64,000 nt of DNA from the IMG/VR virus record IMGVR_UViG_3300027007_000013; one strand, written 5' to 3'. This DNA comes from a virus (taxonomy: Duplodnaviria > Heunggongvirae > Uroviricota > Caudoviricetes). Positions 8,706-27,882 of the stretch are shown piece by piece (the first letter of the stretch is position 1; each line of letters opens with the position of its first letter). The position numbers and the translations under genes are program-made. Below the pieces are notes generated by a model. It was not told the DNA's origin. It saw nothing but the letters and a program-made list of their open reading frames with translations, and did not search any database.

Positions 8706-8908
8706 CTATGCGATGTGGAGACATTCCCAGTGCGACGTCGTCGTCTTCCTGTCCACACTCTATCACTATGCCTCACGATGATTGAACGCGCCCCAGCGCC
8801 GGAAACCGGCAACGGCGTGACACCCATCGAACCATGCTACGTCTGTCGATTACCAGCAGTCCTATCAGATATACATATATTTAATACCTTACCAGTCCAA
8901 GGATAAGT

Positions 8909-9277
8909 ATGGCAAGAAAAAGCCACCCGGCGGAGCAGACGTGGGACGAGCGGGTCGTCGAGCAGCTGGAGTCGCTCGAGTACGTCGAGCACGTGCACCT
9001 GGACGGCGGCGAGCGCGACTACATCGCGGGACAGCGCGACGTCGACCGCATGACGTGGGTCGTGAAGCTGGACGAGTCGACGATCCAGCAGATCGAGTTC
9101 GTGGAGGGCGCCGACGAGTTCAGCGAGACGCTGCGGGGCGTGCGCAACGACCTGGAGCTGGAGCTGGGCCTGGCGCCGGGCGACTCGTGGATGGAGTGGG
9201 ACGAGATGGCACGCGGGACGATCTACGTGACGGGCACGCACGACAACCGCCCGGGCGGGAGCGACGTCTTCCGCTGA
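8909..9277 (+). CDS. cassette protein with MARKSHP N-terminus, acidic
   Basis: ATG lies inside the conserved 5' hairpin; 122 aa. Confidence 0.55.
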   Translation: MARKSHPAEQTWDERVVEQLESLEYVEHVHLDGGERDYIAGQRDVDRMTWVVKLDESTIQQIEFVEGADEFSETLRGVRNDLELELGLAPGDSWMEWDEMARGTIYVTGTHDNRPGGSDVFR

Positions 9278-9397
9278 GCGCGGCGTGGCGCGGTTACCCG
9301 GCAACGGTTGGCGTCGAGGGACGTCGGTGGTTCGAGTCCACCGCCGGGCGTTGGGCCGAAAAGACCCGGGACTGGCCCGCCCGAACGGAGCGACAGA

Positions 9398-9702
9398 TGA
9401 GTGAAGAACTCGCGCCCGCGGCGGAGCGGGCACTGGCGGAGGAGCACAGGGACGAAATCGCGCTGACGATCATCGACGACGCCGTCGAGCTGTACGAGCT
9501 CGTGTCGCGTGTCGGCCTCATCGCCGAGGATGCAGCCGCCGAGCTCGAGTTCGTCGACGAGCAGGAGGGCTCGATCGACGACGTCCACATGGCGGTCGAC
9601 ATCCTGAACGAGCTCGACGACAAGCTCGTGTACATGAACCGACAGAAGCGTCATGTCGAGAGCCTGCTGAACGAGCTGGAGCTCGTCGAGGAGGACCTGT
9701 AG
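9398..9702 (+). CDS. hypothetical acidic protein
   Basis: internal ATG of ORF 8941..9702; the upstream part of that ORF is a GC-frame artifact overlapping 8909..9277. Confidence 0.5.
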
Positions 9703-9703
9703 A

Positions 9704-9871
9704 TGCCCGAGATCGAGGTGTCGGGCGACGTCGTCAAGGCGCGCCACTTCGGCGAGGTTGATGGCGAGTACGCGAAGCTCGTTGTCCACCGCGACCTGCT
9801 GGCTGACGACGAGAAGGCGACCGTCATCCTCGACGAGATGCGTGACGCGATCGCGCAGGAGGGCCGCTGAT
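9704..9871 (+). CDS. hypothetical small protein
   Basis: 55-aa ORF MPEIEVSGDVVKARHFGE..., tightly packed in the operon. Confidence 0.4.
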
Positions 9872-10067
9872 GCACGACACGTGTCAGTGTGAGGCGTGCA
9901 AGCTGGAGCGCCAGCGCGAGTACGAAGCGTCGTACCCCGAGCAGGCGCGGCGGGACAAGCTGGAACTGGGCGCTGAGGCGACGACCGAGTTCGCCCGCGA
10001 GGAGGCGCTGCTGCTGAAGACGGGGATGACCGAGCGCGACGCGCGGGCCCGGGGGCTGATCGACTGA
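9870..10067 (+). CDS. hypothetical small protein
   Basis: 65-aa ORF overlapping the upstream stop. Confidence 0.45.
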   Translation: MHDTCQCEACKLERQREYEASYPEQARRDKLELGAEATTEFAREEALLLKTGMTERDARARGLID

Positions 10068-10233
10068 TGACCGCGATGGACGACCTGCGCGTCGAGCGAC
10101 AGCACTCGCGCTACGCGGTCGCGTTGGAGAACATCGAGGCGCTCGCGCACGACGGGCTCGAGCAGATGAGCGTCGAGGAGAAAGACGCGATCCTGCGTGA
10201 GATCGAGACGGTCGCGACGGAGGCGTTCGAATG
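10066..10233 (+). CDS. hypothetical small protein
   Basis: 55-aa ORF MTAMDDLRVERQH... Confidence 0.4.
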
Positions 10234-10662
10234 AGCCGTCCGGCGGAGAAACGCGCGGCCGCGATGATGGAGTTGCTGGAGGAGGACGGGACGATGAGCG
10301 AGGGACACGACGACTCGACCGACCCGGAGTGTTGGCGGGAGTCGTTCCTGGAGAGTGCGTTCGAGGAGGCGTCGACGATGGTGACCCGCGCTTCGATGGC
10401 GTACGACGAGGAGCACGGTGAGATGAACGACGAGATGCACCCGATGGACGTCATCCGCGGGGAGAACCTGCTCCGCGTCTACGCGACGAGTCGGCCGTGG
10501 GCGATCCCGGTCGTGGTGGTCGAGGTCGCAGAGGCGCCGGCGTACTTCGACGAGCACAGCATGCTGACCGACGTTCGGGAAGTGTACGCCCGACGAAAGC
10601 CGGGGCTGTCGGAGGACCCGACGCACGTGAAGATCCAGATTCGTCCCGGGAGGCCACGGTGA
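10231..10662 (+). CDS. hypothetical acidic protein
   Basis: 143-aa ORF. Confidence 0.5.
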   Translation: MSRPAEKRAAAMMELLEEDGTMSEGHDDSTDPECWRESFLESAFEEASTMVTRASMAYDEEHGEMNDEMHPMDVIRGENLLRVYATSRPWAIPVVVVEVAEAPAYFDEHSMLTDVREVYARRKPGLSEDPTHVKIQIRPGRPR

Positions 10663-10835
10663 GCGACGTGGCGCGCGAACCCGGTGAGTCGTCGGTGGCC
10701 GAGATGTCGACGGAGTCGCTGCTGTTCCAGACGGCGATGAACGATCGCTATGGTGGCGAGGTCGCCGACCTGATCGACTGGGATCTCGACGTGGAGATGC
10801 GTCGCGAGCTCGCGTCGCGAGGTGTCGAATGGTAG
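10659..10835 (+). CDS. hypothetical small protein (GTG start)
   Basis: in-frame GTG abutting the upstream stop. Confidence 0.35.
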   Translation: MSDVAREPGESSVAEMSTESLLFQTAMNDRYGGEVADLIDWDLDVEMRRELASRGVEW

Positions 10836-10940
10836 TGTACGCCGCGACAGCCCTGGTCGTCTGGCTCGGTGGCCTGTTCGTCCTGTGGCTCGTGTTCATG
10901 GGGACGAAGCAGACAATCGAGCACAGGAGGGCCGAGTGAT
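10832..10940 (+). CDS. small hydrophobic single-pass membrane peptide
   Basis: MVVYAATALVVWLGGLFVLWLVFMG..., 36 aa. Confidence 0.3.
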
Positions 10941-11199
10941 GGCGAACTTCGGATGGTCGTACCCACCGGGCGCGGCGAACGACCCGGCGGCGCCGTACAA
11001 CGAGCCCGAGCGACCCGAGCCCGGGACTGTGATCACGCACGACGTCGCGGAGGCGTACTGCTCGACCTGTGACGAGACGATCGGGCCGCAATCACCGGAC
11101 GTCGTCGCGGACATGCTCGTCGCAGAGCACGAGGGGCACCTCGTCGAGGTGGAGTCGTGGACGGAGGAGGAAGTGTGGGAGGGTGACGATGCCCGGTAG
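10939..11199 (+). CDS. hypothetical protein with CxxC
   Basis: 86-aa ORF containing CSTCDE. Confidence 0.45.
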   Translation: MANFGWSYPPGAANDPAAPYNEPERPEPGTVITHDVAEAYCSTCDETIGPQSPDVVADMLVAEHEGHLVEVESWTEEEVWEGDDAR

Positions 11200-11353
11200 C
11201 TACGAGCGCCACCTGGACGAGTTCGGCATCTGTCGCTGCGGGGCGTCCCGCTCGGGAACGGAGCCGATGTCGCTGGAGTACCAGGACGACATGACCGGGC
11301 GATGGGTAATCGAGCAGGTGCCGGCGTGCGCTGACTGTTTCGGGCTGCTGTAG
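11189..11353 (+). CDS. hypothetical Cys-rich small protein
   Basis: 54 aa, with CRCG...CADC. Confidence 0.4.
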   Translation: MPGSYERHLDEFGICRCGASRSGTEPMSLEYQDDMTGRWVIEQVPACADCFGLL

Positions 11354-11762
11354 CCCAGCGCCCTTTCCGCTTTCGCGCGCCGCCCCGCGCCCGCCCTGTC
11401 TGGTCCGTCAACTCCGCGAGGTGATAGTAGAGGATCTGATTAAATGCAGGAATCGTGATGTGAATACAACCCATCTACCCCCACCGCCGTGGGCCCTACT
11501 CGGCGACGCCTTCTGACGGCCGTAGCCCCTACCCTCCAGGGTTGGCTCACGGCCCCCCACGCCCCGTGTACCGGGATTCATGCGCCTGTCTACGCCTGTC
11601 TCATTTCATACTCTCCGATGATACGACCCCCTCTGTTTCATCTCCGCGACCCGTCGCGTCAAACCGGCGGTGTATCAGATAGTAGAAACATTTAATATCG
11701 TATCACTCCAAGGATAAGATAGGACACCGGTCAAAACCGGTGGCCAACTGGAGTGACCAGAG

Positions 11763-12221
11763 ATGGCAAACGAGACCCAGGCGACTGAGGCACAGCAGAC
11801 GACCATCGCGGGCGACGTCGACGTCGTCGACCCAACGCAGCACGTCGTGGGCTTCAACGCGAAGACGATGAAGCGCGCGAAGTGGGAGGAGTACGACTTC
11901 GTGGTGACGGAGTCCGGCAACGTCGAGGTGCGCAACGCGTCCTACGGGGACGACGCGGACGAGCACACGTACCACGTGGTGACTGACGCCGCGGGCATCC
12001 CGAAGTGGTGCCTGCACGCGCTGAGCGACGCGCACGAGGACGACTGGAAGCCGTGCCCGGCGATGGCCTACCACGCGGCGAAGAAGAACAAGGCGACGGG
12101 CCTCGAGACCGACGAGCTCGTGGCGCGGGGCGAGTACAGAGTGTGCAAGCACGCTCTCGCCTACGCGCGCAACGAGGCGATCGTTCAGGCGGTCCGCCGC
12201 GTCAAGCAGGGTGACAACTGA
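11763..12221 (+). CDS. SWIM-type zinc-finger-like protein
   Basis: C..H...C..CKH pattern (KWCLHALSDAHEDDWKPCPAMAYH...CKHALAY); preceded by a 5'-hairpin variant and a GGAGTGA Shine-Dalgarno-like element. Confidence 0.5.
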   Translation: MANETQATEAQQTTIAGDVDVVDPTQHVVGFNAKTMKRAKWEEYDFVVTESGNVEVRNASYGDDADEHTYHVVTDAAGIPKWCLHALSDAHEDDWKPCPAMAYHAAKKNKATGLETDELVARGEYRVCKHALAYARNEAIVQAVRRVKQGDN

Positions 12222-12412
12222 TGTCGTGCCCGAATTGCGGCGGGGAGACCGGGCCGAACCCGGTGCGCGACGACCCGCGGACGCCGGCGATGGGCGGGCA
12301 CGATCCGGGACCGACCGTCGTGTTCTGCTCGGCGGAGTGTGTCGAAACGTATGACGGCGACCCCGTGCCGGCCACGTGGGGCATCGCTATCAGCAGCCCG
12401 GAGGGACAGTGA
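12221..12412 (+). CDS. small zinc-ribbon protein
   Basis: MSCPNCGG...CSAEC. Confidence 0.45.
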   Translation: MSCPNCGGETGPNPVRDDPRTPAMGGHDPGPTVVFCSAECVETYDGDPVPATWGIAISSPEGQ

Positions 12413-12639
12413 TGTTCCTGTTGGATGTCTACGCGGACGCTCACGACGAGTACCCGGTGCGGACGCTCGAGGCGACTGGTGTGGGGACGGCGGTGCTGAC
12501 GGCGGCCCGGACGGCCGAGTCCCTCGCGGACGAAGCGTGCCGGCTCCAGGTCGGCGCTGCTGGCGAGGATGAACTGTTCGAGATGTTCCCCGACCCGGGG
12601 CATGGGACCGTGGTGGTCCGGGAGGTCGGTCGCCGATGA
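12412..12639 (+). CDS. hypothetical protein
   Basis: ATG overlapping the upstream TGA. Confidence 0.4.
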   Translation: MFLLDVYADAHDEYPVRTLEATGVGTAVLTAARTAESLADEACRLQVGAAGEDELFEMFPDPGHGTVVVREVGRR

Positions 12640-13124: not shown

Positions 13125-13333
13125 GTTCCGCTTTTGCGCCGCGCCCCGCCGCTCGCCGACCCTGTCGTGTTTTCCTGTCGCCCCCTCGCGCGGCGTGGTG
13201 CGGCAACCCGGTGCCCTTGCGATGTCTCGGGTTTACCAGCAGTATCAAGTTATTAACATATCTTTATACTCGCTCCTCTCTTAGGTTAGGATAGGCACTG
13301 GGGAAACCCGGTGGCCATCTGGAGTGAAATCGA

Positions 13334-14998
13334 ATGGCAAGCAGTGACAACGACGTGGAGTACAGCACGGGACAGATCGGCGTCGACGAGGAGCGTATCA
13401 TCGACGAGCTGATCTTCAGCCAGGCGGAGGGCATCGTCGACGGCATCCGCGAGCTGGCGCAAAACGGCGTCGACGCACCCGGCTCGACGAAGGTCGAGAT
13501 CAACGTGACCCCGGAGCGGACGGTCGTGGTCGACGACGGAGACGGGATGGACCTGAGCGACGAGTCGGTCCGGGAGTTCCTGACGAACCTGGGCCAGTCG
13601 ACGAAGATCGACGATGAGGAGACGATTGGCCAGTTCGGCATCGGCTTCGGTCAGGCGCTGGCGGTCGGGAAAGTGATAGTGCACAGCCAGGACTCGAAGG
13701 TCGAGTTCGACGCGAAGAACTGGTTCCGCGACTACCGGCTGTACGAGGCCGAGGAGCACTTCGACGGCACGAAAGTGACGATCGAGCACTACGAGGACGA
13801 GGTGCCCGAGGCGGGCGCGAGTGAGTGGTCCGACCACCTCGCCGACATCCGCACCCGGTTCCAGTACATGGAGCTGGTCAAGGGCGTTGAGGTGTGGCTG
13901 AACGACGAGCAAGTATCCGGATACGACCCGGCTGAGGACGATGAGAACGCCACCGTCTACGACTCGGAACTGGCGTACATGGTCCTGAAGCACGAGAGTT
14001 ACGACTGGATAACGGTGTACTCGGCGGGCCTGAAAGTCACGGACGTCCGCGGCCACGGCATCGGGGGCACCGTGATCACGAAGCGCAACCTCGAGCTGAA
14101 CACGGCGCGGAACAGCATCCGGTCTGGGTGCGAGGTCTGGCCCGAGGTCGAGGCCGAGATCGAGGAGGCACGTGTCGAGCTCCTGGACGCCGTCTCTGAT
14201 TCGAAGCTGACGAACAGTGGTCGCGCGGCCGTGGGCCGCCTGGCCGCCCAGGGACACGAGGGGTTCGAGGACCGCGAAGTGTTCAAGCTGGCGAACGGTG
14301 AGATGACCACCCTCGAGACGATCCAGAGCCGAGACAGCATCATGTTCGCTGACCAGACGGACAAGGCCGGGGGCAAGCTGGCTGACCACGGGAAGACCGT
14401 CCTGATGCGCAGCGATGGCGCGGTTCAGGCGATTCGGGAAGCGGTGAACCTCGGTCAGCTGAGCATCCCGGAGACGAAAGACGTCCAGGCGTCGGCGGCC
14501 GCGATGGGCATCGCGAACGGCTACGAGATCCTCGAGCCCGAGGAGTTCCACAGCAAGCCCCTGGCGATGGCCCGCATCCTGCGGGAGAAGATGGAGCAGT
14601 ACAGCCCCTACGCGCTGGACCGGGAGATCGTGGCCGGAGCGGATAGCGGGGCCAACGCGTGGACGAAGCCGGACCCGTCGACCCTGAACCCGGTGGAGAC
14701 GGCGGCGATCGCCGACTCTGAGTTCGAGTCGTTCGTCGCGATCACGGACACCGCCTACAGCCAGTTGGCGAGCGAGGTCCTCGTGCTCGAGCTGTGGCGC
14801 ATCCTGGCTCACGAGTTCGCCCACACGGAGGATTCGACGGGTGAGCCGTCCCACGGGTCGGGCTTCGCGATGCGCTTCCGCAAGATCCTCGACAAGACCC
14901 AGCCGGCGGCCGTCGAGCTCCTGAACGAGATTCGCCAGGATGGTGTCACGGCAACGTTCGAGCGATACGACCACGGCGTCCCACACGCCCGCGCCTAA
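13334..14998 (+). CDS. GHKL-family (Bergerat-fold) ATPase with a C-terminal HExxH motif
   Basis: N-box ELAQNGVDA, G1 VVDDGDGM and G2 GQFGIGFGQA resemble Hsp90/MutL/MORC-type HATPase motifs; C-terminal LAHEFAHTED. Preceded by the cassette promoter and hairpin. Confidence 0.7.
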   Translation: MASSDNDVEYSTGQIGVDEERIIDELIFSQAEGIVDGIRELAQNGVDAPGSTKVEINVTPERTVVVDDGDGMDLSDESVREFLTNLGQSTKIDDEETIGQFGIGFGQALAVGKVIVHSQDSKVEFDAKNWFRDYRLYEAEEHFDGTKVTIEHYEDEVPEAGASEWSDHLADIRTRFQYMELVKGVEVWLNDEQVSGYDPAEDDENATVYDSELAYMVLKHESYDWITVYSAGLKVTDVRGHGIGGTVITKRNLELNTARNSIRSGCEVWPEVEAEIEEARVELLDAVSDSKLTNSGRAAVGRLAAQGHEGFEDREVFKLANGEMTTLETIQSRDSIMFADQTDKAGGKLADHGKTVLMRSDGAVQAIREAVNLGQLSIPETKDVQASAAAMGIANGYEILEPEEFHSKPLAMARILREKMEQYSPYALDREIVAGADSGANAWTKPDPSTLNPVETAAIADSEFESFVAITDTAYSQLASEVLVLELWRILAHEFAHTEDSTGEPSHGSGFAMRFRKILDKTQPAAVELLNEIRQDGVTATFERYDHGVPHARA

Positions 14999-15318: not shown

Positions 15319-15416
15319 CCTTTCGGAATCCTGACTTGTCAGAACCCTTTATTACCGTATCCTGAGAAGGATTACATGGACCTCGAGAAAGCCGAGGCCA
15401 GCTGGAGTGACCAGAG

Positions 15417-15728
15417 ATGACAGATACAGCACGACTTGTCGTGAATGGCTATGTGGAACCGAGCGAGCGAGATACCCGAATTGTGTCGATCCTGGGGAGT
15501 CTGGCCGGCGTCCCGGACGGCCACCAGTTCGACTATCGCGGGATGACGATCGAAAAGCGCGTGACGACCGAGCGAGCGCGGCGCGAACCCGAGATCGCTG
15601 TCTACGACCCTGACGGCGAGTACGTCGACCAGTTCCAACCGCTCCTGTTCTCGTCGTACGAGATCGTGGAGATGCTCGACGAGATGCGAGCCTACTGGGT
15701 CGAGGAGAGTCGCGCCACGGCACTGTGA
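15417..15728 (+). CDS. hypothetical acidic protein
   Basis: preceded by a 14-codon upstream ORF (15376..15420) inside the hairpin module and a GGAGTGA element. Confidence 0.5.
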   Translation: MTDTARLVVNGYVEPSERDTRIVSILGSLAGVPDGHQFDYRGMTIEKRVTTERARREPEIAVYDPDGEYVDQFQPLLFSSYEIVEMLDEMRAYWVEESRATAL

Positions 15729-16181: not shown

Positions 16182-16356
16182 CGTTCCGCTTTTCCGCACC
16201 GCCTGCGCCAACCTGTCGACTTCCCGATTCAGTCTGACCTTGCTACGTTGTGTGATTACGGGCAAACACCTCAGATATACATATATTAATATTCACTCCA
16301 CCCTTAGGTAGAAGTAGGCCAGGAAAACTGGCCCACCCGAACGGAGATAGAGAAAG

Positions 16357-16506
16357 ATGCGATACAGAGTCTACGGTACGCACAGTGGCAACGAGTTTCA
16401 GGCACCTGTCGACGCAGTCGATGCGAGTGACGCGGTCGACGAGTTCCTCGAGTCGGTCGAGGACCCGACCGAGTTCAGCGACGTCGAGGCCGAGGTCTGG
16501 GGGTAG
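16357..16506 (+). CDS. hypothetical small acidic protein
   Basis: 50-aa ORF 10 nt after the GGAG that follows a hairpin variant lacking an ATG. Confidence 0.4.
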   Translation: MRYRVYGTHSGNEFQAPVDAVDASDAVDEFLESVEDPTEFSDVEAEVWG

Positions 16507-16509
16507 CCG

Positions 16510-16991: not shown

Positions 16992-17398
16992 TCTCGACCC
17001 TGCTGCGGTTTGCATCGTTCCTGGTGGTAGTGAGCGGTTCGATTCCGTGACGATGCCTGGCCCCCGAGCCCTCAGACGATACGTTGATAGGTTCGCGGGG
17101 CCTATGCTCACGCGGCATCCGTTAGTGATGCCGTTCCGTTCGGGTGGGATAGCACGCGTCGGGCTGTCTCGGCAAGGGCAACCACGTCAGTCGAGATCAG
17201 AGGCTCGTGCAAACCCGTTGCCCGGGGCATTTGTCCCCGGGCGCCCTTTGGTACCGCCTCGAGCGAGAGCTCTTGTTCTCTGACATCGCGTATCCGCGCC
17301 CGAGCGCGCAAACCCGGTGTGATCATGCTACGATCCTGTTCTATCAGCAATATTATCTGACAAAGATATTATTATATCAGCTCCAGCCTAAGGTAAAG

Positions 17399-17520
17399 TA
17401 TGGCACGAAAAAGCCACTCGAGCGGAGATAGCGTGAACAAGCAGCGGTACCGCGGCAACGAGTCGACCGCCGACTTCGACCTGGGCGACGCACTGAGCCA
17501 GATCTCGGAGAGCCGCGAGG
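17399..17520 (+). CDS. small acidic protein, MARKSH start
   Basis: 40-aa ORF beginning inside the hairpin element. Confidence 0.35.
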
Positions 17521-19620: not shown

Positions 19621-19761
19621 CCTTCGCATATCAATCGAGTTACGTAAGCAGCTATTGCCGATTCGGCGCCCCAGCGCGGCAACCCGGTGATTGCCAACCC
19701 CTAATCTATGACTCATGTTGATAAAGAAACACTTAATATCCCTCCACTCTTAGGTTAAGAT

Positions 19762-19923
19762 ATGGGACAAAAATCCCAACTCGGGCGGAACGAGGTACAG
19801 AGCGTCAAAATTGAAACGCAGGGCTCCCATGCTACGCTCTCACACATCGAGGGCGTGTGGATCGAGGATGGAGAGCTGGTCATCCGCACCCTCGAGGACT
19901 TGCCAATTCACGGAGAAATCTGA
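19762..19923 (+). CDS. small cassette protein, MGQKSQ start
   Basis: 53-aa ORF starting in the hairpin. Confidence 0.4.
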   Translation: MGQKSQLGRNEVQSVKIETQGSHATLSHIEGVWIEDGELVIRTLEDLPIHGEI

Positions 19924-20111
19924 GGCACGTCCTCCCACGGGACGCGCCCCCATGTCAAGCCTTCGTCCACGCGCAGCGGAGAGTGGCGGCGCCGACGGCT
20001 CGCCCTCGCGGGCCCGAGCGCGGCAAACCGGCACCATGCGACGCCCGCGGAATCCCCGCAGTATCAGCCGTCTTACATATATTAAATACCCTACCCTGAG
20101 TAGGAAGAAGT

Positions 20112-20447
20112 ATGGGACAAAAATCCCACCCCCGACCGGAGCAGTGTGAAGTGCCAGGGTACTACTGGACCGCCCCCGAAGTCGTCGAGTGCTGGCGCGA
20201 CCCCGAGGACGTGCTGATCGCGTGGGACGACGGTGTGTACGTGCTGTGTGTCGGCGAGCCGGCCGAGCATGCGAGTGAGTCAGGGCGACCGCTGTGGTAC
20301 GCGCCCGAAGTGCGAGTGCACGACGTGTTCGTCGACGGCGAGCGATTCGAGCTGATCGAGCGCGACGACGAGCGCCTGCGCAACGTGCGGGAAGTGAGAG
20401 TGACGCACGGGACTGCAAGCGCCGTCGCCGAGCTCGAGTCAGCGTGA
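20112..20447 (+). CDS. cassette protein, MGQKSHP start
   Basis: 111 aa. Confidence 0.55.
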   Translation: MGQKSHPRPEQCEVPGYYWTAPEVVECWRDPEDVLIAWDDGVYVLCVGEPAEHASESGRPLWYAPEVRVHDVFVDGERFELIERDDERLRNVREVRVTHGTASAVAELESA

Positions 20448-20527: not shown

Positions 20528-20711
20528 GGCCCTGTCGCGTGCCGCTTTCCCGCCGCGCCCCGTCGACCGCCGTCTGTCGTTTCCCCTCCGTCCACTCCGT
20601 CACCTCCGCGCGCCGCGTCACTGAAACCCGGTGTCCATGCCACGATCCGTACCCGACGACAATATCAGCCGATTAACATATCTATATACTTGCCCCAGAC
20701 GAAGGTTAAGT

Positions 20712-20915
20712 ATGGCACGAAAATGCCTCCCGGACGGGTACAGCTGGACAGTCGACGGTGAAGACGCGCAGACGACCGAGATCTACGTCGAGAACGCAGA
20801 GGGTGAGCTGATCGGCAAAGACCACGTGGCGTCGCAGTTCGTGCGAACCGACGCCGAGCGCGAGGAAGTTGCGGCGCAGATCGCCGCGGGTGAGCGGGGG
20901 CGTCAGTTCCAGTAG
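20712..20915 (+). CDS. cassette protein, MARKCLP start
   Basis: 67 aa. Confidence 0.5.
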   Translation: MARKCLPDGYSWTVDGEDAQTTEIYVENAEGELIGKDHVASQFVRTDAEREEVAAQIAAGERGRQFQ

Positions 20916-21029
20916 AGCGGCGCCGACTGTCGGTTTTACGCCGTGCCCCGTCGACCATGCGACGTTCAGCGGAAGTCGACAATATCAGCTGTCATACATA
21001 TATTCATATTCGCTCCCGACCAAGATAAG

Positions 21030-21146
21030 ATGGGGAGAAAAGCCCCACCCGACGGAACCATGAGCTACGCGACCCACGTCCAGATCCGGAAGTTGCAGAG
21101 AGCGAGAGACAAGAGCCGCTGGCCGAGCGACGAGGACGACGAGTAG
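21030..21146 (+). CDS. small cassette protein, MGRKAPP start
   Basis: 38 aa. Confidence 0.4.
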   Translation: MGRKAPPDGTMSYATHVQIRKLQRARDKSRWPSDEDDE

Positions 21147-21209: not shown

Positions 21210-21330
21210 GCCCATCTCGAACCCTCACGTGCCCGAGCGCGGCAAACCGGCACCCTGCGACGTCCGTCACAAGTCGACACATATCAGCCGCTTTACGTGT
21301 CTTTAATACCCTACCAGCCCAAGGTATAGT

Positions 21331-21693
21331 ATGGAAGCCAAAAACTTCCCACCGCGAACGGTGCAGAGCGCAGAGCCAACCGACGTCGTCGAAGAAGACG
21401 GCTACCGAGTCCTGACGTACGAGGACGTCGACGTCGACATTCGGATCTCGCGGACGATCAGCCCCGAGACGCCGAAAATCTGGGTCGCCGGCGACCGACT
21501 CGACACGCAAGTGGAGACGGTGACCGACGTCGAGTTCCTCGGCTTCGAGCTCTGGCGATACACCTACCTCGAGGGTAAGCCGACCCATGCCGGTGAGGGT
21601 CGACACCGAGGCCGATTCGCCGAGGTCGAGATCGAGGAGAATCACTACGGCGAAGACGAAGTCCACGAGTTCAGCCTCAGGGTCAAGCGGTAG
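21331..21693 (+). CDS. cassette protein, MEAKNFP start
   Basis: 120 aa. Confidence 0.55.
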   Translation: MEAKNFPPRTVQSAEPTDVVEEDGYRVLTYEDVDVDIRISRTISPETPKIWVAGDRLDTQVETVTDVEFLGFELWRYTYLEGKPTHAGEGRHRGRFAEVEIEENHYGEDEVHEFSLRVKR

Positions 21694-22100
21694 ACGGGGC
21701 TGACGCCCGGTTTCGCGCGCCGCCCCGCCGCCCGACGACCCCTGTTTCCACTCCGTCTGGTCCAACGCGGAATAGTAGAGGAAATTATTATTTGCAGAGA
21801 TCGAGCCCTGAATACAACCCGCCTCAGCGAGGTTCATGGGCGCTACACGTCGGCGAGTTTTGTGAGGCATGGCTCCTACCCCTTCGAGTTGGCTCACGGC
21901 ATTCCGAGCGTCGTGTGGACGGTGTCTCCGCGAGGTTCGTGGGCATCTCAGGAAATGCCCCCTGATGATACGAGAACCCCTGTTTCCCTTCCGCGTGCCG
22001 CGTCACGCGAATCCGGCACGCGCCATGCGACGTCGACGTCCATCCAGCAGTAACAGCCGTCTTACATATCTATATACCTGCACCACTCTTAGGATAAGAT

Positions 22101-22478
22101 ATGGGAACCAAAAACCCATCCGAAGCGGAACAGAGCGACGAGATCCTCCCGGCCCTCGACCACCGCGGACTGACGGGCCACGGCAAGGCCCGACTCGAGG
22201 AGAGCGAGCTCGTGACCCCGTACCTCGTGCGGACCCTCCAGGAGGCGGACCCGGCCATCCTCCGGGCCCTCTCGCAAGTGGCTGACGCCGCCGCCTCGGC
22301 CCGGTACGGCCCCATCCAGGCCCAGCTGGCCAAGGACGAAAGCGCGAGCCGCGAGATCCAGCAGCAGTACTGGAACCAGCTGGACGACGTGAAGGGCCTG
22401 TCCCTCCTCTGCACGGAAATCCTGCGCGACGAGCGTGACGGCGTGCCCAGCGAGGACGACCCGAGACTCGGCTTCTAA
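22101..22478 (+). CDS. cassette protein, MGTKNPS start
   Basis: 125 aa. Confidence 0.55.
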   Translation: MGTKNPSEAEQSDEILPALDHRGLTGHGKARLEESELVTPYLVRTLQEADPAILRALSQVADAAASARYGPIQAQLAKDESASREIQQQYWNQLDDVKGLSLLCTEILRDERDGVPSEDDPRLGF

Positions 22479-22844
22479 CGCCGACCAGCGCACTACCACC
22501 AGCAGCGGCTGGCCTGCGCACCGGTTTTCCGCCGTGCCCCGTCGCCCACGTGACCCTCGTTTCCGCTCCGCCCGCGACTGTCTCGTGCGATCGTCGCGCC
22601 CTGCTTGCGTACGTGTCCCCCCACTGTTACGCTCGTCACGCCTGCGTTCGCGGCCTGTGCTATCCGCGTCCGACCCCTGTTTCATCTCCGCGTGCCAAGG
22701 CGCGGCAACCCGGTGGCGTCCCCGTCAGCAAACGGGCCCTTTCTGCAAGCAATCCGACACTGAAATCTATAAAACGCTGTCTCAAGCCCTCTACACGAGG
22801 ATTTAGACCAGAACCTTTATATCAAATCAAGTTCAAGAAGAAGT

Positions 22845-23084
22845 ATGGAATCAAAAATTCCATCCCGGACGGAGAGTGGCGAGAGTGTCGAAATCGCAGT
22901 CGGTCACCGAGCGGAGAGCGACGTCATCGCGCGGGCGCTCAACGAGAAGGCGCGGGAAGCCGAGCTCGAAGCGGAGCGGGCCGGGCCGAAAACGCAGCCC
23001 GTGCACGAGCTCGACGCCGCCGTGCTGCGAAGCGCCGCCGCCGAGTTCGAGCGCGAGTACGCCGAGTGGCGCGAGGAGCGATAG
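22845..23084 (+). CDS. cassette protein, MESKIPS start
   Basis: 79 aa. Confidence 0.5.
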   Translation: MESKIPSRTESGESVEIAVGHRAESDVIARALNEKAREAELEAERAGPKTQPVHELDAAVLRSAAAEFEREYAEWREER

Positions 23085-23086
23085 AG

Positions 23087-23248: not shown

Positions 23249-23353
23249 GATGCGGCGGCTGCGGACGGCGCTGCTGGCGGCGAGCGTCGTGACGCGGATC
23301 GTCGCGTTCCCGGCGGTGTTGGCTGTCGCGCGGGCCCGAGCGAGGGTCGTGCG

Positions 23354-23569: not shown

Positions 23570-23746
23570 TGCTGGTGGTACTGCTCGTTGCCCTGCTCGT
23601 GGTGCTGTTCGGCGTCTGGCTCGTGCTGGCCGCGGCTACCGCGTTCTAACCTCGCGCGACGCGCCGCGGCAACCCGGTGAATCGGTCTAAGGGCTGTTAC
23701 TACCGCATCACTGATATTTAATACCTCATGCGTCGAAGATGAAGAT

Positions 23747-24208
23747 ATGGGACCAAAATCCCACCCAACGGGCGATGAAGCGAGCGATGAAGCGAGCGAC
23801 GACGTCGTTGTCGTCGATGAGTGTGCGACGTGGGTCGGGCGACGCGAAGACGTGAGTGAAGACGAAGCCGTCGCCGCGATGAGCGATGTCGAGCGGGCCG
23901 TGAAGCGGGTCGCAGACGAGCGATGGGTCGACGTCGTGCGGGTCGCGATGTGCGACGACGAAGTGCGGGCCGTCGTGAAGATGAAGCAGTGTGAAGGGCC
24001 GGGTGCGGGCGCGACGACGTGGGCGAGCGCGTTGTGCGACGTCGAGTTGGGCGACGGGCGCGAGCGCGAAGTCGATGTGAGCGTGACGTTGCCGGGCCGT
24101 GAAGGGATGTCGGGCGATGTGATGGGCGAAGTCGAAGTCGACGGGCGCGAGTGGGAAGTGCGACGTGAAGTGTGGGTCGACGAAGACGGGCGCGAAGTCG
24201 GGCCGTAG
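23747..24208 (+). CDS. cassette protein, MGPKSHP start
   Basis: 153 aa, extremely acidic. Confidence 0.5.
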   Translation: MGPKSHPTGDEASDEASDDVVVVDECATWVGRREDVSEDEAVAAMSDVERAVKRVADERWVDVVRVAMCDDEVRAVVKMKQCEGPGAGATTWASALCDVELGDGREREVDVSVTLPGREGMSGDVMGEVEVDGREWEVRREVWVDEDGREVGP

Positions 24209-24335
24209 CGCGAGCGTGGGCGACGTCGCCGCCGGGCGATGTCGTCGCGTGTCGGTTTCGCGCCGCGCCACCGCCCAACCAGCAGTTACAGCCGGAACAC
24301 GTGCCTATATATCAGTATCATGAGAAGTAAGAAGT

Positions 24336-24674
24336 ATGGAACCGAAAAGTTCCCACCGAGCGGAGTACAGTGAGCCGCCCATCGAGCTGGCGAATGCCGT
24401 GCGACGCGGCGAGCACTACCTGCTGGGCGACGTTGGAGAGTTCGTGGTCGACGAGATCGCTGTTGGGTACCCAGTCGAGGAGCGAGACGGCGTGGTCGCC
24501 CCGAACCGCGAGGCGTTCGTCACGCGTATCGAGTTTGTGGCGCCGGGCGAGTGTATCGTGATGGGTCTTGCCGAGCTCGAGGACCGCATCGATCGAACCG
24601 ATGTGTTGCCCCTGACCGTGCGCGAACGCGATGAGGAGCTGCACGCGGAGTGGGAGAGCCACGGGCTGCTGTAG
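24336..24674 (+). CDS. cassette protein, MEPKSSH start
   Basis: 112 aa. Confidence 0.55.
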   Translation: MEPKSSHRAEYSEPPIELANAVRRGEHYLLGDVGEFVVDEIAVGYPVEERDGVVAPNREAFVTRIEFVAPGECIVMGLAELEDRIDRTDVLPLTVRERDEELHAEWESHGLL

Positions 24675-24778
24675 TCGAGGCGCACCGCTGCGGTCCGCTT
24701 TTGCGCCGTGCCCCGCCGCTCGTCGCTGCTATTACCGGTACGCTGACACTTATACTTGCACGAGTGGTAGGTAGAAGT

Positions 24779-24970
24779 ATGGTCAGAAACGACCACCCGA
24801 ACGGAGAGCTGAGCGAGTACCAGAAGGCGAACGAGCTGAGCGACGACGAGTTGCGACAGCGCGTGATCGAGCTGCGGAGCGAGCCCGCGCCGCTGGTGGG
24901 AGTGGACAGCGAGTTGGAAGCCGCCGAGGAGGTCGCGCGAGACCGCGGGCTCGGGCTGGGGATGAGCTGA
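24779..24970 (+). CDS. cassette protein, MVRNDHP start
   Basis: 64 aa; the ATG lies in the hairpin, slightly upstream of the ORF-track start. Confidence 0.45.
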   Translation: MVRNDHPNGELSEYQKANELSDDELRQRVIELRSEPAPLVGVDSELEAAEEVARDRGLGLGMS

Positions 24971-25117
24971 TGCTGGGCCACAGCGGGCCGTTCTGTCCGG
25001 ACTGCGGTGCAGAGGGACTGAGCGATGAGTGGGTCGAGGGCGGGCGACGGATGGTGGCGCGACAGTGCCCAGAGCCGAGATGTAGCTCGTACTGGGAGTA
25101 CGAGGTGGGCTGCTGAT
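24969..25117 (+). CDS. small zinc-ribbon protein
   Basis: CPDCG...CPEPRC. Confidence 0.35.
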
Positions 25118-25346
25118 GCAGCGACGGATCGACGCGACCGTGGTGATCGGGAGCGACCGAAAGACGGTGTCGGTGTGGGTCGACGAAGACGCGTCCGATG
25201 CGACCCGCGAGGCCGCGGTCGAGGAGATTGTCGGCGACGTCCGGTCGTGGGAGAGTGAGCCGGTCGAGCTCGAGGGATGGGGCGAGACGGGCTGGGTCCA
25301 GGGCGATGGCCGGGACGCGATGCCCCGCCGCGAGCCCGGCTGGTAG
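25116..25346 (+). CDS. hypothetical protein
   Basis: 76 aa. Confidence 0.45.
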   Translation: MQRRIDATVVIGSDRKTVSVWVDEDASDATREAAVEEIVGDVRSWESEPVELEGWGETGWVQGDGRDAMPRREPGW

Positions 25347-25718
25347 CCCCGCCTCGCGATTGTGGCCAGTGTCGGTTTTGCGCCGTGCCCCGCCGACCCC
25401 TGCTTCCGGTCCAACGACGCTGTCCAGCGGATTGAGCCGACTGTGCGCCCGCATCTGACTGTCTCCGGAGGGTCCAAGGGCGTCTCACGTCGGCGTGTTT
25501 CTGACGCTGTGACTCCTACCCTGTAGGGCCTGCTCACGGCGTTTTGACGCCTGTGCGGACACTGTCTCCCGGCGTTCTGTGAGCGTCTCAGGCTGTCGCT
25601 TGCCGTGATGTCGTACGCATGTCATGACCCCTGTTTCCACTCCGCGCCACGTCGCGTCAAACCAGCAGTATCAGCCGCCAAACATATCTATATACTTGTA
25701 CCCTGAGAAGCATAAGAT

Positions 25719-25961
25719 ATGGGAAAGAAAAGTCCCACCCGAGCAGAACTGGCACAGAAACGCCGCGGCATCGTCAGCGCGCTCCCGTTCACGTGCCCGA
25801 CCGAGCGAGGCGACCAGATCGTGGTGCACGTGCAAGACCGCAAGCTGGAGAAGTTCGAGCGCGTCGCGAAGCAGCTCGAGCTCGAAATCGTCGACCGCGA
25901 AGACGGCGGGAGTTCGCAGCAGGGCCGGCGCCTGCGCATGACGCTGGAGACGGCCTCGTGA
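25719..25961 (+). CDS. cassette protein, MGKKSPT start
   Basis: 80 aa. Confidence 0.5.
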   Translation: MGKKSPTRAELAQKRRGIVSALPFTCPTERGDQIVVHVQDRKLEKFERVAKQLELEIVDREDGGSSQQGRRLRMTLETAS

Positions 25962-26111
25962 GCCGCGTCGTCCGGGTCCCGCGTCTCGGCGACCGCCGTA
26001 ACCCGTGCACCGTCATGCACGAGACGCACACGGGTCGCCTGAAAGTGCGCGACCGCTACGGCTACGCCCTGCGGGTCGACCCCGAGGAGGTCGTCGAGTA
26101 GCGCAACCGCC

Positions 26112-26633
26112 ATGTATCGCGACTACGAGATTCGATTCGAGCCGATGGACTGGCCGACGCCCGTGTACGTCAGCGAGGACGAACCCAGCCCCGACGCGGT
26201 CGACCCGATCGAGAACTGGAACGTGAAGCCGGTCGGTGGGCTGTGGACAGCACCGCTGCTCGATGACAGCGACGGCCTCGCGACCGCCTGGACAGAGTGG
26301 ATGAACGCCGAGCAGTACGTCCCGTATGGCGAGAACGCTCGCCTGTACGCCCTCGAACCGCGTGACGACGTCGACCTGTTCGTGGTCGACAGCCTCGATG
26401 CCGCGAAGGAGCTGTACGCGTTCGGCGACAGCGGACCGGCCGAGGTGCTCTCGAGCGCGGTCGACTACGAGGCGATCGTCGACGAGTACGACGGCGTCCG
26501 CCTGACGCATGAGGGCCAGATCGACACGCGCCTGTCGTGGGAGGCGAATCTGAACGGCTGGGATTGTGCGTCGACGGTGTGGTTCGACTGGTGCTTCGAG
26601 TCGGTCGAAGACCTGGGCCCGCTGGAGTTGTAG
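26112..26633 (+). CDS. hypothetical acidic protein
   Basis: 173 aa. Confidence 0.55.
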   Translation: MYRDYEIRFEPMDWPTPVYVSEDEPSPDAVDPIENWNVKPVGGLWTAPLLDDSDGLATAWTEWMNAEQYVPYGENARLYALEPRDDVDLFVVDSLDAAKELYAFGDSGPAEVLSSAVDYEAIVDEYDGVRLTHEGQIDTRLSWEANLNGWDCASTVWFDWCFESVEDLGPLEL

Positions 26634-26793
26634 CCGGGCCCGCTTTTGCGCCGTGCCCCGCCGTCAGCCGACAGCAAACGGGCCTGTTCTGTGGACCGTT
26701 CCGTCCTGTTTTCGCGGATTCGGGCGTCTCAGGCCGTCTACGCGCGGAATGGTGTGGGAAAACTATATACCTGTAAGTGTCCAAGTATAAGAT

Positions 26794-26991
26794 ATGGGAC
26801 AAAAAATCCCAACCCGACGGAGAGCGACGCCGGCGAACCTCGAGCAGAGACTCGCCGAGATCGAGCGAGAGCTGCGGGCGATGAGCCGGGGCGACGTCGA
26901 CGCAGGGACGTGCCGCTGGCTGCTGGAGGAGAAAGCCGAGCTGCGAGCCGAGCGCAACCGCCTGTTCGCGGCGACGGGGCGGTGGTCGTGA
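26794..26991 (+). CDS. cassette protein, MGQKIPT start
   Basis: 65 aa. Confidence 0.5.
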   Translation: MGQKIPTRRRATPANLEQRLAEIERELRAMSRGDVDAGTCRWLLEEKAELRAERNRLFAATGRWS

Positions 26992-27129
26992 TGAGCGACG
27001 ACGAGTTCCCGGGACCCGCGCCGATGGGCGCACGACCGCCGGACGTCGTCGAGCGGGCGAAGGAGATCGCGTACGGCGAGGTGTCGGCGACGTCCGAAGA
27101 AGTCGCCTGGGCGCTGGAGGTGATCGCGG

Positions 27130-27369
27130 ATGAGCGATGAGTTGCTGGGCGTGATCGAGGTCGAGAGCAGCAAGCCGTACGTGAAAGACGTGTACGACGT
27201 GGTCCGCGTCGATGGGCCCGATCTCGAGACGGTCTGCGTCGAAGCTGGCGAGCGCCACGAGCTGGGCGACCGCGTCCGCTGGCCGAACGAGCTCGTGACG
27301 GTGATGTCCCGGGCGACGCTGTACGACCCCGACGGCAACGAGATCGAGATGGCTGAGCTCGGCCGATAG
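27130..27369 (+). CDS. hypothetical protein
   Basis: 79 aa. Confidence 0.45.
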   Translation: MSDELLGVIEVESSKPYVKDVYDVVRVDGPDLETVCVEAGERHELGDRVRWPNELVTVMSRATLYDPDGNEIEMAELGR

Positions 27370-27645
27370 GGCCCCGGCTCCCGCCTCGGCCTACGCGCGC
27401 CAAGGCGCCGCAACCCGGCAACGCGTGTGGGTACGTACCGACGTGTGTGTATGTACAGACGCCGACCCCGAACCCCGATTCGCCCGACCGGCTGCACTAC
27501 CACCAGCAGCGACCGGCTCAGCCGACAAAAAACGGGCCCACATCACGACGGTTTTCACGCGCGGAATCCAAAACGAACGCCTCAGGGCTCCTACGCGCGG
27601 AATGTGACCAGAAACTATATACCTGTCAAAGTACAAGTATGTAAT

Positions 27646-27882
27646 ATGGAATCAAAAATTCCATCCCGACGGAGCAGCGAAGCGTGCGAGAACGGTGTCG
27701 AGAACGCGATCAGTGAGCGAGAACGTCGCCTCGTGCGGGACGTGACGGCCATCGTCAACGAGCTCGAGACGATCTCGCAGCACGACGAGATGCTGAGCGG
27801 GCGAATGACGAAGCAGTGGGCCGAGGGGCTGTGCGACGCAGTCGACGAGTTCGCCGAGTCGGACCCGCACGCGCAGGAGTAG
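27646..27882 (+). CDS. cassette protein, MESKIPS start (last cassette of the array)
   Basis: 78 aa. Confidence 0.5.
   Translation: MESKIPSRRSSEACENGVENAISERERRLVRDVTAIVNELETISQHDEMLSGRMTKQWAEGLCDAVDEFAESDPHAQE

Follow-up and report, generated by a model that had tools for sequence, protein, structure and literature searches.

In T4-like phages, repeated promoter/stem-loop cassettes known as PeSLs lie 5' of ORFans and mediate modular shuffling (PMC2839356; PMC4122927). In viruses of haloarchaea, the class I/II repeats of HF2 and other members of Haloferacalesvirus carry promoters composed of a B recognition element (BRE) and a TATA box; in those HF2 repeat promoters that have been mapped, the BRE occupies -33..-37 with the TATA box just downstream, a block around the mapped start is essential for activity, and in one repeat, IR4.5, a 9-bp inverted repeat takes the place of the start-site block (PMC8707807). 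For HGTV-1, a 144-kb haloarchaeal myovirus, a review of the work of Sencilo et al. (2013) reports a conserved motif, made up of a TATA-like box and an inverted repeat, 5' of most open reading frames (ORFs) in one arm of the genome and likens it to the T4 PeSLs for transcription and gene shuffling (PMC3950731). Here we analyze the 64,000 nucleotides of IMG/VR virus record IMGVR_UViG_3300027007_000013, a member of the Caudoviricetes (this whole stretch is called the window below), in which 19 copies of an intergenic repeat join a promoter to a short stem-loop that in most copies contains the start codon of the gene behind it. We argue that this stem-loop is likely to fold as RNA, under selection, at the 5' end of early viral transcripts.

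Results

Architecture of the repeated module

An nhmmer profile built from 13 seed copies located 19 copies of the intergenic repeat, all on the plus strand between 8845 and 27688 (E values from 2e-19 to 0.012), and the same profile found no match elsewhere in the 64 kb. Every copy contains a module that heads a cassette of small ORFan genes; among the cassette-region gene calls of the source contig, which comes from a JGI metagenome, Pfam gave no match except HATPase_c_3. The order of elements within the module is oligo-T terminator remnants, a BRE/TATA promoter, a predicted start at the AUG or 1-2 nt before it, the hairpin, and a CGGAG motif, and the module reaches ~30 nt into the ORF.

In 19 of 19 copies, positions -31..-24 from the ATG, or from the equivalent position, are taken up by an AT-rich box such as TTTAATA or CTATATAC. 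AGAAAC or ACATAT is often found just 5' of this box, the BRE-like AGAAAC standing at -36..-31, and a proximal conserved block, ..AAGGATAAG(A)T, lies between the box and ATGG/ATAGG. The stem-loop begins at ATGG/ATAGG, 1-3 nt from the predicted transcript start, and has a stem of 4-7 bp and a loop of 4-9 nt. AAA is present in every loop of the window and of L001, a locus of a related virus described below, including the CAAA, GAAA, and GAAAA loops of the noncoding hairpins that sit in a 5' untranslated region (UTR). A C-rich motif with the consensus CCCGA(N)CGGAG adjoins the 3' side of the stem-loop. The original prediction, made from the sequence of the window, had the form CCCGACGGAG following the hairpin; this form is exact in two copies only (26813 and 27665), and the others are degenerate.

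Farther upstream, T-runs and heterogeneous small inverted repeats are found in some copies only, and in some repeats there are also small G+C inverted repeats with CAA(A/C)CCGG(T/C)G behind them. In many copies a T-run block, CCGCTTTTGCGCCGTGCCCCGCCG, immediately follows the stop codon that closes the cassette before it (13128-13162, 20542-20576, 21707-21741, 24695-24729, 26640-26674, and others) and is probably an archaeal oligo-T terminator.

For the ribonucleotide reductase encoded in the window, the 80 best matches among genomes are all from Halobacteria, with 53-59% identity. The host is thus a haloarchaeon, as had been proposed, and the AT-rich box is therefore read as an archaeal TATA box. 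Promoter geometry, with the BRE and the TATA box placed as above, puts the transcript start at the A of the ATG or 1-2 nt 5' of it, so the hairpin would stand right at the 5' end of an mRNA without a leader, in agreement with the original prediction. Measured from the start predicted by TATA spacing, the helix begins within ~4 nt of the predicted 5' end, at nucleotides 1-4 in 18 of the 19 copies, compared to 14 of 56 other gene starts.

Other readings of the repeat could be rejected. A bacterial promoter, in which the AT-rich box would be a -10 element and AAGGA a Shine-Dalgarno sequence, is ruled out by the Halobacteria relatives of the reductase and by the BRE/TATA geometry, and a miniature inverted-repeat transposable element or other transposon by the single orientation, the fusion to gene starts, and the lack of terminal inverted repeats. 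A second hairpin within CCCGA(N)CGGAG would have 2-3 bp only, with a C.A clash, and reading GGAG as the Shine-Dalgarno sequence of a later start in the ATG-type copies gives no consistent in-frame start. Rfam 15, run over both strands of the whole window, returned no match at the gathering threshold, and no tRNA genes were found in the window.

Start codons in and behind the hairpin

The hairpin had been described as containing the ATG in all 19 copies. This stands for 15 copies, in which the ATG is that of the downstream gene, and for copy 15337 (copies are named here by the first position of the repeat), in which it opens an upstream open reading frame (uORF), but not for copies 11654, 13234, and 16257. 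The 15 genes that start within the hairpin are ORFs of 38-153 codons encoding acidic, halophile-type proteins, and the gene caller of the source contig picks the same start for copy 8845, the sole copy that is directly comparable. In copy 15337 the uORF has 14 codons and its TGA overlaps the main ATG (ATGA). In the three exceptions the gene begins 35-45 nt farther downstream, preceded by GGAGTGA or GGAG. ATGG is replaced by ATAGG in copies 11654 and 13234, where a much stronger hairpin leads to CTGGAGTGA and, 6-7 nt later, the ATG; in copy 16257 it is replaced by GTAGG, the hairpin is strong, and the ATG lies 43 nt downstream.

Leaderless uORFs of 11 or 14 codons with an ATGA overlap to the main start are found in both the window (15376-15420) and L001 (16254-16289). 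The hairpin ATG is in frame in every pair of orthologs between the two loci despite insertions and deletions, and this conservation of frame, together with the two ATGA-coupled uORFs, indicates that ribosomes start at the hairpin AUG. Judged from these reading frames, the hairpin AUG is evidently a working ribosome entry point.

Covariation of the stems

At least 10 different stems are found among the copies, and many copies have an identical TGGGA/TCCCA stem, which they probably share by common descent. Several of the stems listed in the original prediction were recovered as given (TGGAAT/ATTCCA, TGGTC/GACCA, CACCGG(T)/(A)CCGGTG, GGCCAG/CTGGCC, and CCTCG/CGAGG). The arms of TGGGAC/GTCCCA and of TGGCAC/GTGCCA, however, occur together in no copy, the real stems being TGGGA/TCCCA and GGCA/TGCC, and the listed TGGAAC/GTTCCA is GGAAC/GTTCC.

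Each ATG-type hairpin is weak by itself (-4.1 to -7.4 kcal/mol, z of -0.02 to -2.25). The hairpin alone stays at about -3.5 to -6.8 kcal/mol whatever the length of its stem, the 4-bp stems being all G-C and the 7-bp stems A-U rich. The four other hairpins, those of copies 11654, 13234, 15337, and 16257, reach -11 to -14.6 kcal/mol with z of -3.3 to -4.2. Since the thermodynamics of single hairpins are unconvincing, the case rests on covariation.

A plain MAFFT alignment of the hairpins was structurally inconsistent, and we therefore used a covariance-model alignment and a swap test. The covariance model was built from 7 copies of identical geometry and then used to align 27 ATG-type copies, 16 from the window and 11 from L001. 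In this alignment 76.5% of the cells are paired, compared to 61.8% in shuffles, and double changes are present at 7 of 7 pairs. The covariation score was 0.343 against 0.073 for shuffled alignments, none of the 500 shuffles equaled it, and controls in which the pairing was slid gave at most 0.061. At stem position 5 all four Watson-Crick pairs are found (G-C in 16 sequences, A-U in 5, C-G in 5, and U-A in 1) and no cell is unpaired.

Because that alignment is fitted to the structure, we added an alignment-free test in which the first 8 nt of one copy were joined to the next 18 nt of another and the folding energies were compared. In the window, a copy's own arms averaged -5.45 kcal/mol compared to -3.55+/-0.39 for swapped arms, a difference reached in 0 of 2000 permutations; for L001 the figure was 3 of 2000. 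In HGTV-1, for which 21 promoter-associated starts were picked regardless of pairing, own arms gave -4.61 and swapped arms -2.86+/-0.33 kcal/mol (0 of 2000). The covarying pairs on which the original prediction had staked its case thus have statistical support.

The unpaired parts of the sense strand are A/C-rich and leave a single clean hairpin in the sense RNA. Interior U.G pairs occur in three UTR-type helices (window 13234 with its L001 ortholog at 9916, and L001 12910), and on the opposite strand these would be C.A mismatches. The loops read as T4-T7 runs on the minus strand, where they could stop antisense transcription at the promoter.

Compensatory changes between orthologs in a related virus

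A protein-guided scan of IMG/VR returned a sole relative, UViG_3300027007_000012 (88.6 kb), which is also represented by a 154.8-kb contig in ENA and whose HATPase protein is 79% identical to that of the window. L001, a 21.6-kb locus of this relative, holds at least 13 copies of the module. Scanning IMG/VR DNA with a module pattern derived from the window recovered only the contig of this relative again, and a genome scan for carriers of the module found none. Megablast and blastn searches of 50,697 phage records with the region and with a single repeat gave no match. A search of the phage records with the portal protein found nothing, and the terminase and portal have at best remote relatives. 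Since the related contig is at least 154.8 kb long, the virus is a large, uncultivated haloarchaeal tailed virus.

Orthologous copies differ by changes that keep the stems paired. The stem of window copy 17338, TGGC/GCCA, corresponds to TGGGA/TCCCA at L001 14065, where the hairpin is 3 nt longer and the frame is kept, and TGGGG/CCCCA at window 20969 corresponds to TGGGA/TCCCA at L001 16613, a G-C pair having been replaced by A-T. Among the UTR-type copies, CACTGGG/CCCGGTG at window 13234 is matched by TACTGAGG/CCTCGGTG at L001 9916 with one A-T pair inserted, CACCGGT/ACCGGTG at window 11654 by CATCG/CGATG at L001 8394, and GGCCAG/CTGGCC at window 16257 by AGGTCA/TGGCCT in L001, where pairing is kept via U.G.

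The window and L001 are colinear to 19.4 kb, and beyond this point they share four cassette bodies only. The blocks of shared cassette-body homology begin and end at modules; the block at 22097-22476, for instance, begins ~4 nt 5' of the ATG of module 12 and leaves off the last 2 nt of the stop codon. On these breakpoints, recombination has placed the module before unrelated small genes, and the hairpin is one part of a longer, PeSL-like mobile promoter cassette.

Constraint on nucleotides rather than on the peptide

The 19 first proteins of the cassettes have no detectable mutual similarity beyond ~8 N-terminal residues, and the conserved CGG of the downstream motif is in frame 0, 1, and 2 in 3, 8, and 4 window copies, respectively. 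A motif read in all three frames in front of unrelated proteins argues that the constraint is on nucleotides and not on the peptide. One gene is found both with and without the module. In the window (26794-26991, MGQKIPTRRRATPANLEQRL...) it is driven by the module promoter, as a predicted leaderless gene, and has a module-derived N-terminal extension of 7-8 residues, whereas in L001 (20209-20385, MRRSTPADLEQRL...) it lacks the module and is an internal operon gene led by a Shine-Dalgarno sequence. The junction coincides with the 3' end of the module, and nucleotide homology with L001 begins right after CGGAGAG, at 26822. The MGQKSHP-like peptides are therefore best regarded as a by-product of the module. 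Together with the two independent covariation tests, the motif kept in three frames and the unrelated first proteins bear out the earlier claim that selection acts on pairing and not only on the encoded peptide.

The hairpin in HGTV-1

HGTV-1 is only a distant relative: its terminase is 24.6% identical, its first 50 kb yield no more than three weak protein matches, and the covariance model derived from the window scores its copies weakly. The proximal geometry of its promoters is as in the window (CGAAAnnCTTAATAC, ~22 nt, then GT-ATGG), and hairpins are found at the start codons. Two have the stem TGGAG/CTCCA, with the loop caaaa followed by CCCTCGAACG and with the loop caaca followed by ACAACGAGCGGAAG; further stems are TGGTTG/CAACCA (twice), TGGGT/ACCCA, and TGGC/GCCA (several times). 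In the stem TGCCT/AGGCA the usual constant G4-C pair is changed to C4-G. Purine-rich loops (gga, aag, cagata, cactaca) take the place of the A-runs, and the downstream motif is conserved only loosely.

The HGTV-1 repeat has in addition a 19-nt inverted repeat, CTCCTCGTGGCACGAGGAG (CTCCTCGTG-GCA-CGAGGAG), which lies between AT-rich boxes 5' of the BRE. In the 16-kb stretch searched (L087 34000-49856, corresponding to 128-143.8 kb of NC_021328) there are 21 copies of a 68-nt unit with this sequence, on the minus strand; two extra TATA-like boxes flank it, and each repeat thus has up to three AT boxes. This is probably the inverted repeat of the published motif, and it has no match in the repeats of the window. 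The review that describes the HGTV-1 motif makes no mention of a start-codon hairpin (PMC3950731).

A scan for the BRE/TATA/GTATGG pattern returned HGTV-1 and one other halovirus contig only. No hairpin was found at the three matching promoters of that contig, which suggests, with n=3, that the hairpin is not general to leaderless starts of haloviruses.

Positions of the individual modules

All of the modules lie on the plus strand. Module 1 (copy 8845; 8878..8935) has its TATA box at 8878-8885 and its ATG at 8909, with the hairpin TGGC aagaaaaa GCCA at 8910-8925 (-4.9 kcal/mol) and the motif CCCGGCGGAG at 8926-8935; the ORF encodes 122 acidic aa.

The hairpins of modules 2 and 3 lie in a 5' UTR. 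In module 2 (copy 11654; 11688..11765) the TATA box at 11688-11695 is followed by a hairpin at 11722-11745 with the core CACCGGT caaa ACCGGTG (-11.7 kcal/mol, z -3.76), the Shine-Dalgarno sequence GGAGTGA at 11750-11756, and the ATG at 11763. The corresponding elements of module 3 (copy 13234; 13260..13336) are a TATA box at 13260-13267, the hairpin CACTGGG gaaa CCCGGTG with its interior U.G pair at 13294-13316 (-14.6 kcal/mol, z -3.28), GGAGTGA at 13321-13327, and, at 13334, the ATG of the HATPase_c_3 protein.

Module 4 (copy 15337; 15345..15420) has a TATA box at 15345-15352 and the hairpin TGG.CCTCG agaaagc CGAGGCCA at 15377-15400 (-11.0 kcal/mol, z -4.23). Its uORF extends from the ATG at 15376 to the TGA at 15418-15420 and encloses the Shine-Dalgarno sequence GGAGTGA (15404-15410) of the main ATG at 15417. 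Module 5 (copy 16257; 16283..16359), with no ATG in the hairpin, combines a TATA box at 16283-16290, a hairpin at 16314-16336 with the core GGCCAG gaaaa CTGGCC (-12.8 kcal/mol, z -3.44), the motif CCGAACGGAG at 16337-16346, and an ATG at 16357.

The remaining modules hold the ATG of the gene. In module 6 (17369..17427) the TATA box is at 17369-17376, the ATG at 17400, and the hairpin TGGC acgaaaaa GCCA at 17401-17416, followed by CTCGAGCGGAG. Modules 7 (19731..19790) and 8 (20081..20141) have the same hairpin, TGGGA caaaaa TCCCA, at 19763-19778 and 20113-20128, with TATA boxes at 19731-19738 and 20081-20088 and ATGs at 19762 and 20112; module 8 has the motif CCCCCGACCGGAG and encodes the peptide MGQKSHP. 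The hairpin of module 9 (20681..20738; TATA box 20681-20688, ATG 20712) is GGCA cgaaaa TGCC at 20714-20727. Module 10 (20999..21057) has its TATA box at 20999-21006, its ATG at 21030, the hairpin TGGGG agaaaag CCCCA at 21031-21047, and the motif CCCGACGGAA, and another in-frame ATG is present at 21060.

Module 11 (21300..21363; TATA box 21300-21307, ATG 21331) folds as GGAAG ccaaaaa CTTCC at 21333-21349, and module 12 (22070..22130; TATA box 22070-22077, ATG 22101) as ATGGG aaccaaaaa CCCAT at 22101-22119. The hairpin ATGGAAT caaaa ATTCCAT is shared by module 13 (22814..22874), where it lies at 22845-22863 behind a TATA box at 22814-22821 and precedes the motif CCCGGACGGAG, and module 19 (27615..27674), where it lies at 27646-27664 behind a TATA box at 27615-27622 and precedes CCCGACGGAG at 27665-27674; the respective ATGs are at 22845 and 27646. 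TGGGA/TCCCA stems close the loops ccaaaa in module 14 (23716..23774; TATA box 23716-23723, ATG 23747, hairpin 23748-23763), aagaaaag in module 17 (25688..25748; TATA box 25688-25695, ATG 25719, hairpin 25720-25737), and caaaaaa in module 18 (26763..26822; TATA box 26763-26770, ATG 26794, hairpin 26795-26811), the last followed by CCCGACGGAG at 26813-26822. Module 15 (24305..24365; TATA box 24305-24312, ATG 24336) has GGAAC cgaaaa GTTCC at 24338-24353, and module 16 (24748..24806; TATA box 24748-24755, ATG 24779) has TGGTC agaaac GACCA at 24780-24795 with the motif CCCGAACGGAG.

Other features of the window

The cassette region (8000-28000) has a GC content of 62-66%, compared to 52-61% in the rest of the window, which includes the structural, DpdA, and ribonucleotide reductase regions. 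The larger genes are an Eco57I/MmeI-like methyltransferase of 1172 aa (3309-6827, minus strand) and, on the plus strand, a T4-type large terminase (35533-37176), a DpdA-family protein of the kind linked to 7-deazapurine DNA modification (50987-52255), and a class II-like ribonucleotide reductase with a TSCPD domain (58586-61576).

Paired near-palindromes of the form GTGTACGTAC(A/G)TAC, ~22 nt apart, gave 17 matches in the window compared to 0.48 expected. They are found 5' of three repeat promoters and right before the ATG of the terminase large subunit at 35533 (15281-15318, 21176-21211, 27425-27460, and 35478-35513; also 6909-6922 and 7296-7309). By their form they look like putative operators of a dimeric regulator, which could link some early cassettes with the packaging genes. 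Four exact direct repeats of GCGTATCCC, spaced by 27-34 nt, lie at 19476-19575, and a cluster of CTATCCCTG-type repeats lies at 8560-8705, at the divergent junction to the left of module 1; both clusters resemble iterons and may mark an origin of replication or a regulator array.

A conserved intergenic element of ~230 nt, with the core ..GGCTCCTACCC..GGCTCACGGC.. and no ORF, stands 5' of three modules in the window (11407-11635, 21756-21982, and 25414-25633) and at syntenic positions in L001 (8147-8358, 17158-17334, and 19709-19795). RNAalifold gave no convincing consensus structure for this element (-8.2 kcal/mol, with the covariation term a penalty).

Discussion

Protection of the 5' end, or the setting of expression, is the main role that we tentatively prefer for the hairpin, with a chance that we place somewhat short of even. 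The host RNA polymerase would start ~27 nt downstream of the center of the TATA box, and RNA nucleotides +2 to ~+18 would fold at once into the hairpin, leaving 1-3 unpaired nucleotides at the 5' end. The hairpin would protect these mostly leaderless mRNAs against decay that depends on the 5' end, for example by an RNase J-type 5'-3' exonuclease, and would fix a standard local structure round the AUG whatever ORF follows. Where the AUG lies in the helix, the stem would be held at marginal stability, so that ribosomes could open it; in copies whose AUG lies farther on, after a Shine-Dalgarno sequence, the helix is far stronger, at about -10 to -14 kcal/mol. Structure at the 5' end of leaderless transcripts abolishes translation in Haloferax (PMC8241225), and in bacteria the accessibility of the start codon governs leaderless initiation (PMC8459731). 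Such a block would explain why the ATG-containing stems are kept weak. The hairpin persists, and is stronger, where there is no start codon inside it, which suggests that its core role is not the masking of the AUG.

Several observations weigh against protection as the main role. The 5'-terminal position is a prediction from promoter geometry. Single ATG-type hairpins do not exceed shuffled sequences in stability, and random stretches of 26 nt from the 62-66% GC region fold nearly as well, with a mean of -5.1 kcal/mol (other gene starts, -3.2). When the first 26 nt are folded for the window, L001, and HGTV-1 together, the antisense strand is the more stable one in 45 of 52 cases, at -7.1 compared to -5.95 kcal/mol; the antisense strand is G/U-rich, however, and the comparison is thus uninformative on which strand folds. 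The conserved A-run of the loop and CCCGA(N)CGGAG would be unneeded for simple protection and point to an additional partner. The outer GG/CC pairs retained in the UTR-type hairpins show that these arose from ATG-type ones into which an inner helix was inserted, and their 5' position could therefore be inherited rather than selected. Finally, pairing across the AUG of a leaderless mRNA should reduce its translation, which makes a solely beneficial role hard to see.

In a different reading, the helix sequesters U2-G3 of the leaderless AUG and acts as a translational attenuator or switch on early mRNAs; in one variant it could be opened by temperature, salt, a helicase, or a viral factor, giving temporal control. 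The hairpin does contain the gene AUG in 15 of the 19 copies and the uORF AUG in a sixteenth, its stability stays within a narrow range at any stem length, and the Haloferax and bacterial findings cited above make AUG accessibility decisive. We nevertheless consider an attenuator possible but on the unlikely side, because copies 11654, 13234, and 16257 and their L001 orthologs keep a stronger hairpin that has no start codon and is clear of the Shine-Dalgarno sequence and the AUG, and because uORF coupling implies efficient initiation at the hairpin AUG.

The stem, the A-rich loop, and CCCGA(N)CGGAG, alone or together, might instead be a handle for a trans-acting RNA-binding factor of the virus or the host, by analogy with lambda N antitermination, here through oligo-T terminators, or with T4 RegA/RegB, which shut off early mRNAs by acting on their start regions or on GGAG. 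The stem varies while the composition of the loop is constant, the linear motif is kept at the nucleotide level, and one copy follows each of 19 promoters in an array where every cassette ends in a T-run. Loop length nevertheless ranges from 4 to 9 nt, the HGTV-1 loops are not A-runs and its motif is loosely kept, and no candidate RNA-binding protein was identified, N-like proteins not having been searched for. To our knowledge there is no N-like or RegB-like system in archaea. We thus regard a handle of this kind as unlikely in general, and its specific form, in which hairpin and motif are the cis-site of a virus-encoded or hijacked regulator acting as an antiterminator or as an early-to-middle shut-off or nuclease target, as doubtful. 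If true, it would be the first nut/N-like or RegA/RegB-like system in an archaeal virus, and on leaderless mRNAs.

An element acting as DNA (the operator of a dimeric regulator, an attC- or IS200-like recombination or nicking site for the mobilization of cassettes, or an antisense terminator) would account for the synteny breakpoints at the repeats and for the minus-strand loops, which are able to terminate archaeal transcription and belong to the strand that folds slightly better. Yet an operator would conserve its sequence and not covary, and nucleic acid thermodynamics suggest that 5-bp stems with loops of 5-9 nt are too weak to extrude from duplex DNA. The single orientation, the in-frame fusion to genes, the HGTV-1 loops, and the U.G pairs that become C.A mismatches speak against it as well, and no integrase or HUH nuclease was found among the few window proteins scanned or the Pfam hits of ~16 kb of the contig, a search that was not exhaustive. 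We consider a DNA-level element very unlikely, and the weakness of the stems, the covariation, the A/C-rich unpaired parts of the sense strand, and the U.G pairs lead us to infer that RNA rather than DNA is the folded molecule.

That the hairpin has no function of its own, being an ancestral palindrome copied with the module or the outcome of N-terminal codon or peptide constraint, would suit the TGGGA/TCCCA stem shared by many copies and the weakness of single hairpins, but is highly improbable in view of the diversity of stems, the four Watson-Crick pair types without an unpaired cell at one position, swap tests significant in three genomes, compensatory changes between orthologs, and a 3' arm and motif whose reading frame varies between copies.

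In haloarchaea most mRNAs lack a leader, and a folded 5' end should keep them from being translated. Two distant lineages of haloarchaeal tailed viruses, one represented by the window and L001 and the other by HGTV-1, nevertheless keep a covarying hairpin over many early start codons. If the hairpin protects or meters mRNAs, it would provide a rule for the fate of leaderless mRNAs in archaea and a natural, compact, context-independent expression module for Haloferax genetics, composed of promoter, start codon, and insulating hairpin, and in two cases available in a uORF-coupled form. The uORF-coupled copies are a natural counterpart of the synthetic "bicistronic design" for context-independent expression, the window copy having its Shine-Dalgarno sequence inside the uORF. 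The module also extends the idea of PeSLs as mobile regulatory cassettes from T4-like phages to archaeal viruses, the gene found with and without it being a concrete example, and since HGTV-1 is a cultivated virus of Halogranum, the hairpin is readily testable in the laboratory.

Comparison with known systems

The window modules resemble PeSLs in being composite cassettes of ~100 bp with their own promoter, with a terminator function nearby and in a plastic ORFan region, and in that the breakpoints between related genomes, here the window and L001, fall in the repeats. PeSL stem-loops, however, lie within or 5' of a sigma-70 promoter or just before the start, act as terminators, and belong to cassettes that end in a Shine-Dalgarno sequence and ATG, whereas the window modules have, by sequence, an archaeal-type promoter and, past the TATA box at +2..+18, a covarying hairpin that would be transcribed and has the start codon in it.

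The HF2 repeats match the window modules in promoter spacing but have no sequence similarity to them, and no covarying hairpin or start-codon role is described for HF2. The HF2 gamma motif, CGTCTNNTAGAG, has 8 matches in the window compared to 4.8 expected, none of them within the repeats.

Stem-loops that stabilize mRNAs at the 5' terminus are known in bacteria and phages, as in the E. coli ompA 5' UTR and the T7 phi10 leader. These share with the window hairpin a short helix, in which structure matters over sequence, and its place a few nucleotides from the 5' end, which for the window is predicted from TATA spacing; they differ in lying in a bacterial 5' UTR before a Shine-Dalgarno sequence, whereas the hairpin of the window is on mostly leaderless archaeal mRNAs with the AUG in the helix. 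In lambda, the nut site (boxA + boxB) acts with N, and in T4, RegA and RegB control early mRNAs, GGAG being the RegB target. The likeness here is a small hairpin with a purine/A-rich loop beside a linear motif, just 3' of early promoters, and the differences are in the order of the elements, the copy number, and the variable loop length. A nut site has a fixed 5-bp stem and a GNRA-like purine pentaloop to which an arginine-rich N protein binds, whereas the window stems have 4-7 bp and GAAA/GAAAA loops occur in few copies. An attC site is an imperfect inverted repeat of 57-141 bp that lies at the 3' end of a promoterless cassette and has a cognate integrase, whereas these hairpins have 14-24 nt and lie at the 5' end of a cassette with its own promoter.

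In the literature searched, we found no prior description of a covarying start-codon hairpin of leaderless archaeal-virus mRNAs. Repeated promoter cassettes of haloviruses (HF2, HGTV-1), PeSLs, and the stabilizing hairpins at bacterial 5' termini are already known; what is new, as far as that literature goes, is that such a hairpin recurs in distantly related viruses and takes three forms: fused, uORF-coupled, and UTR.

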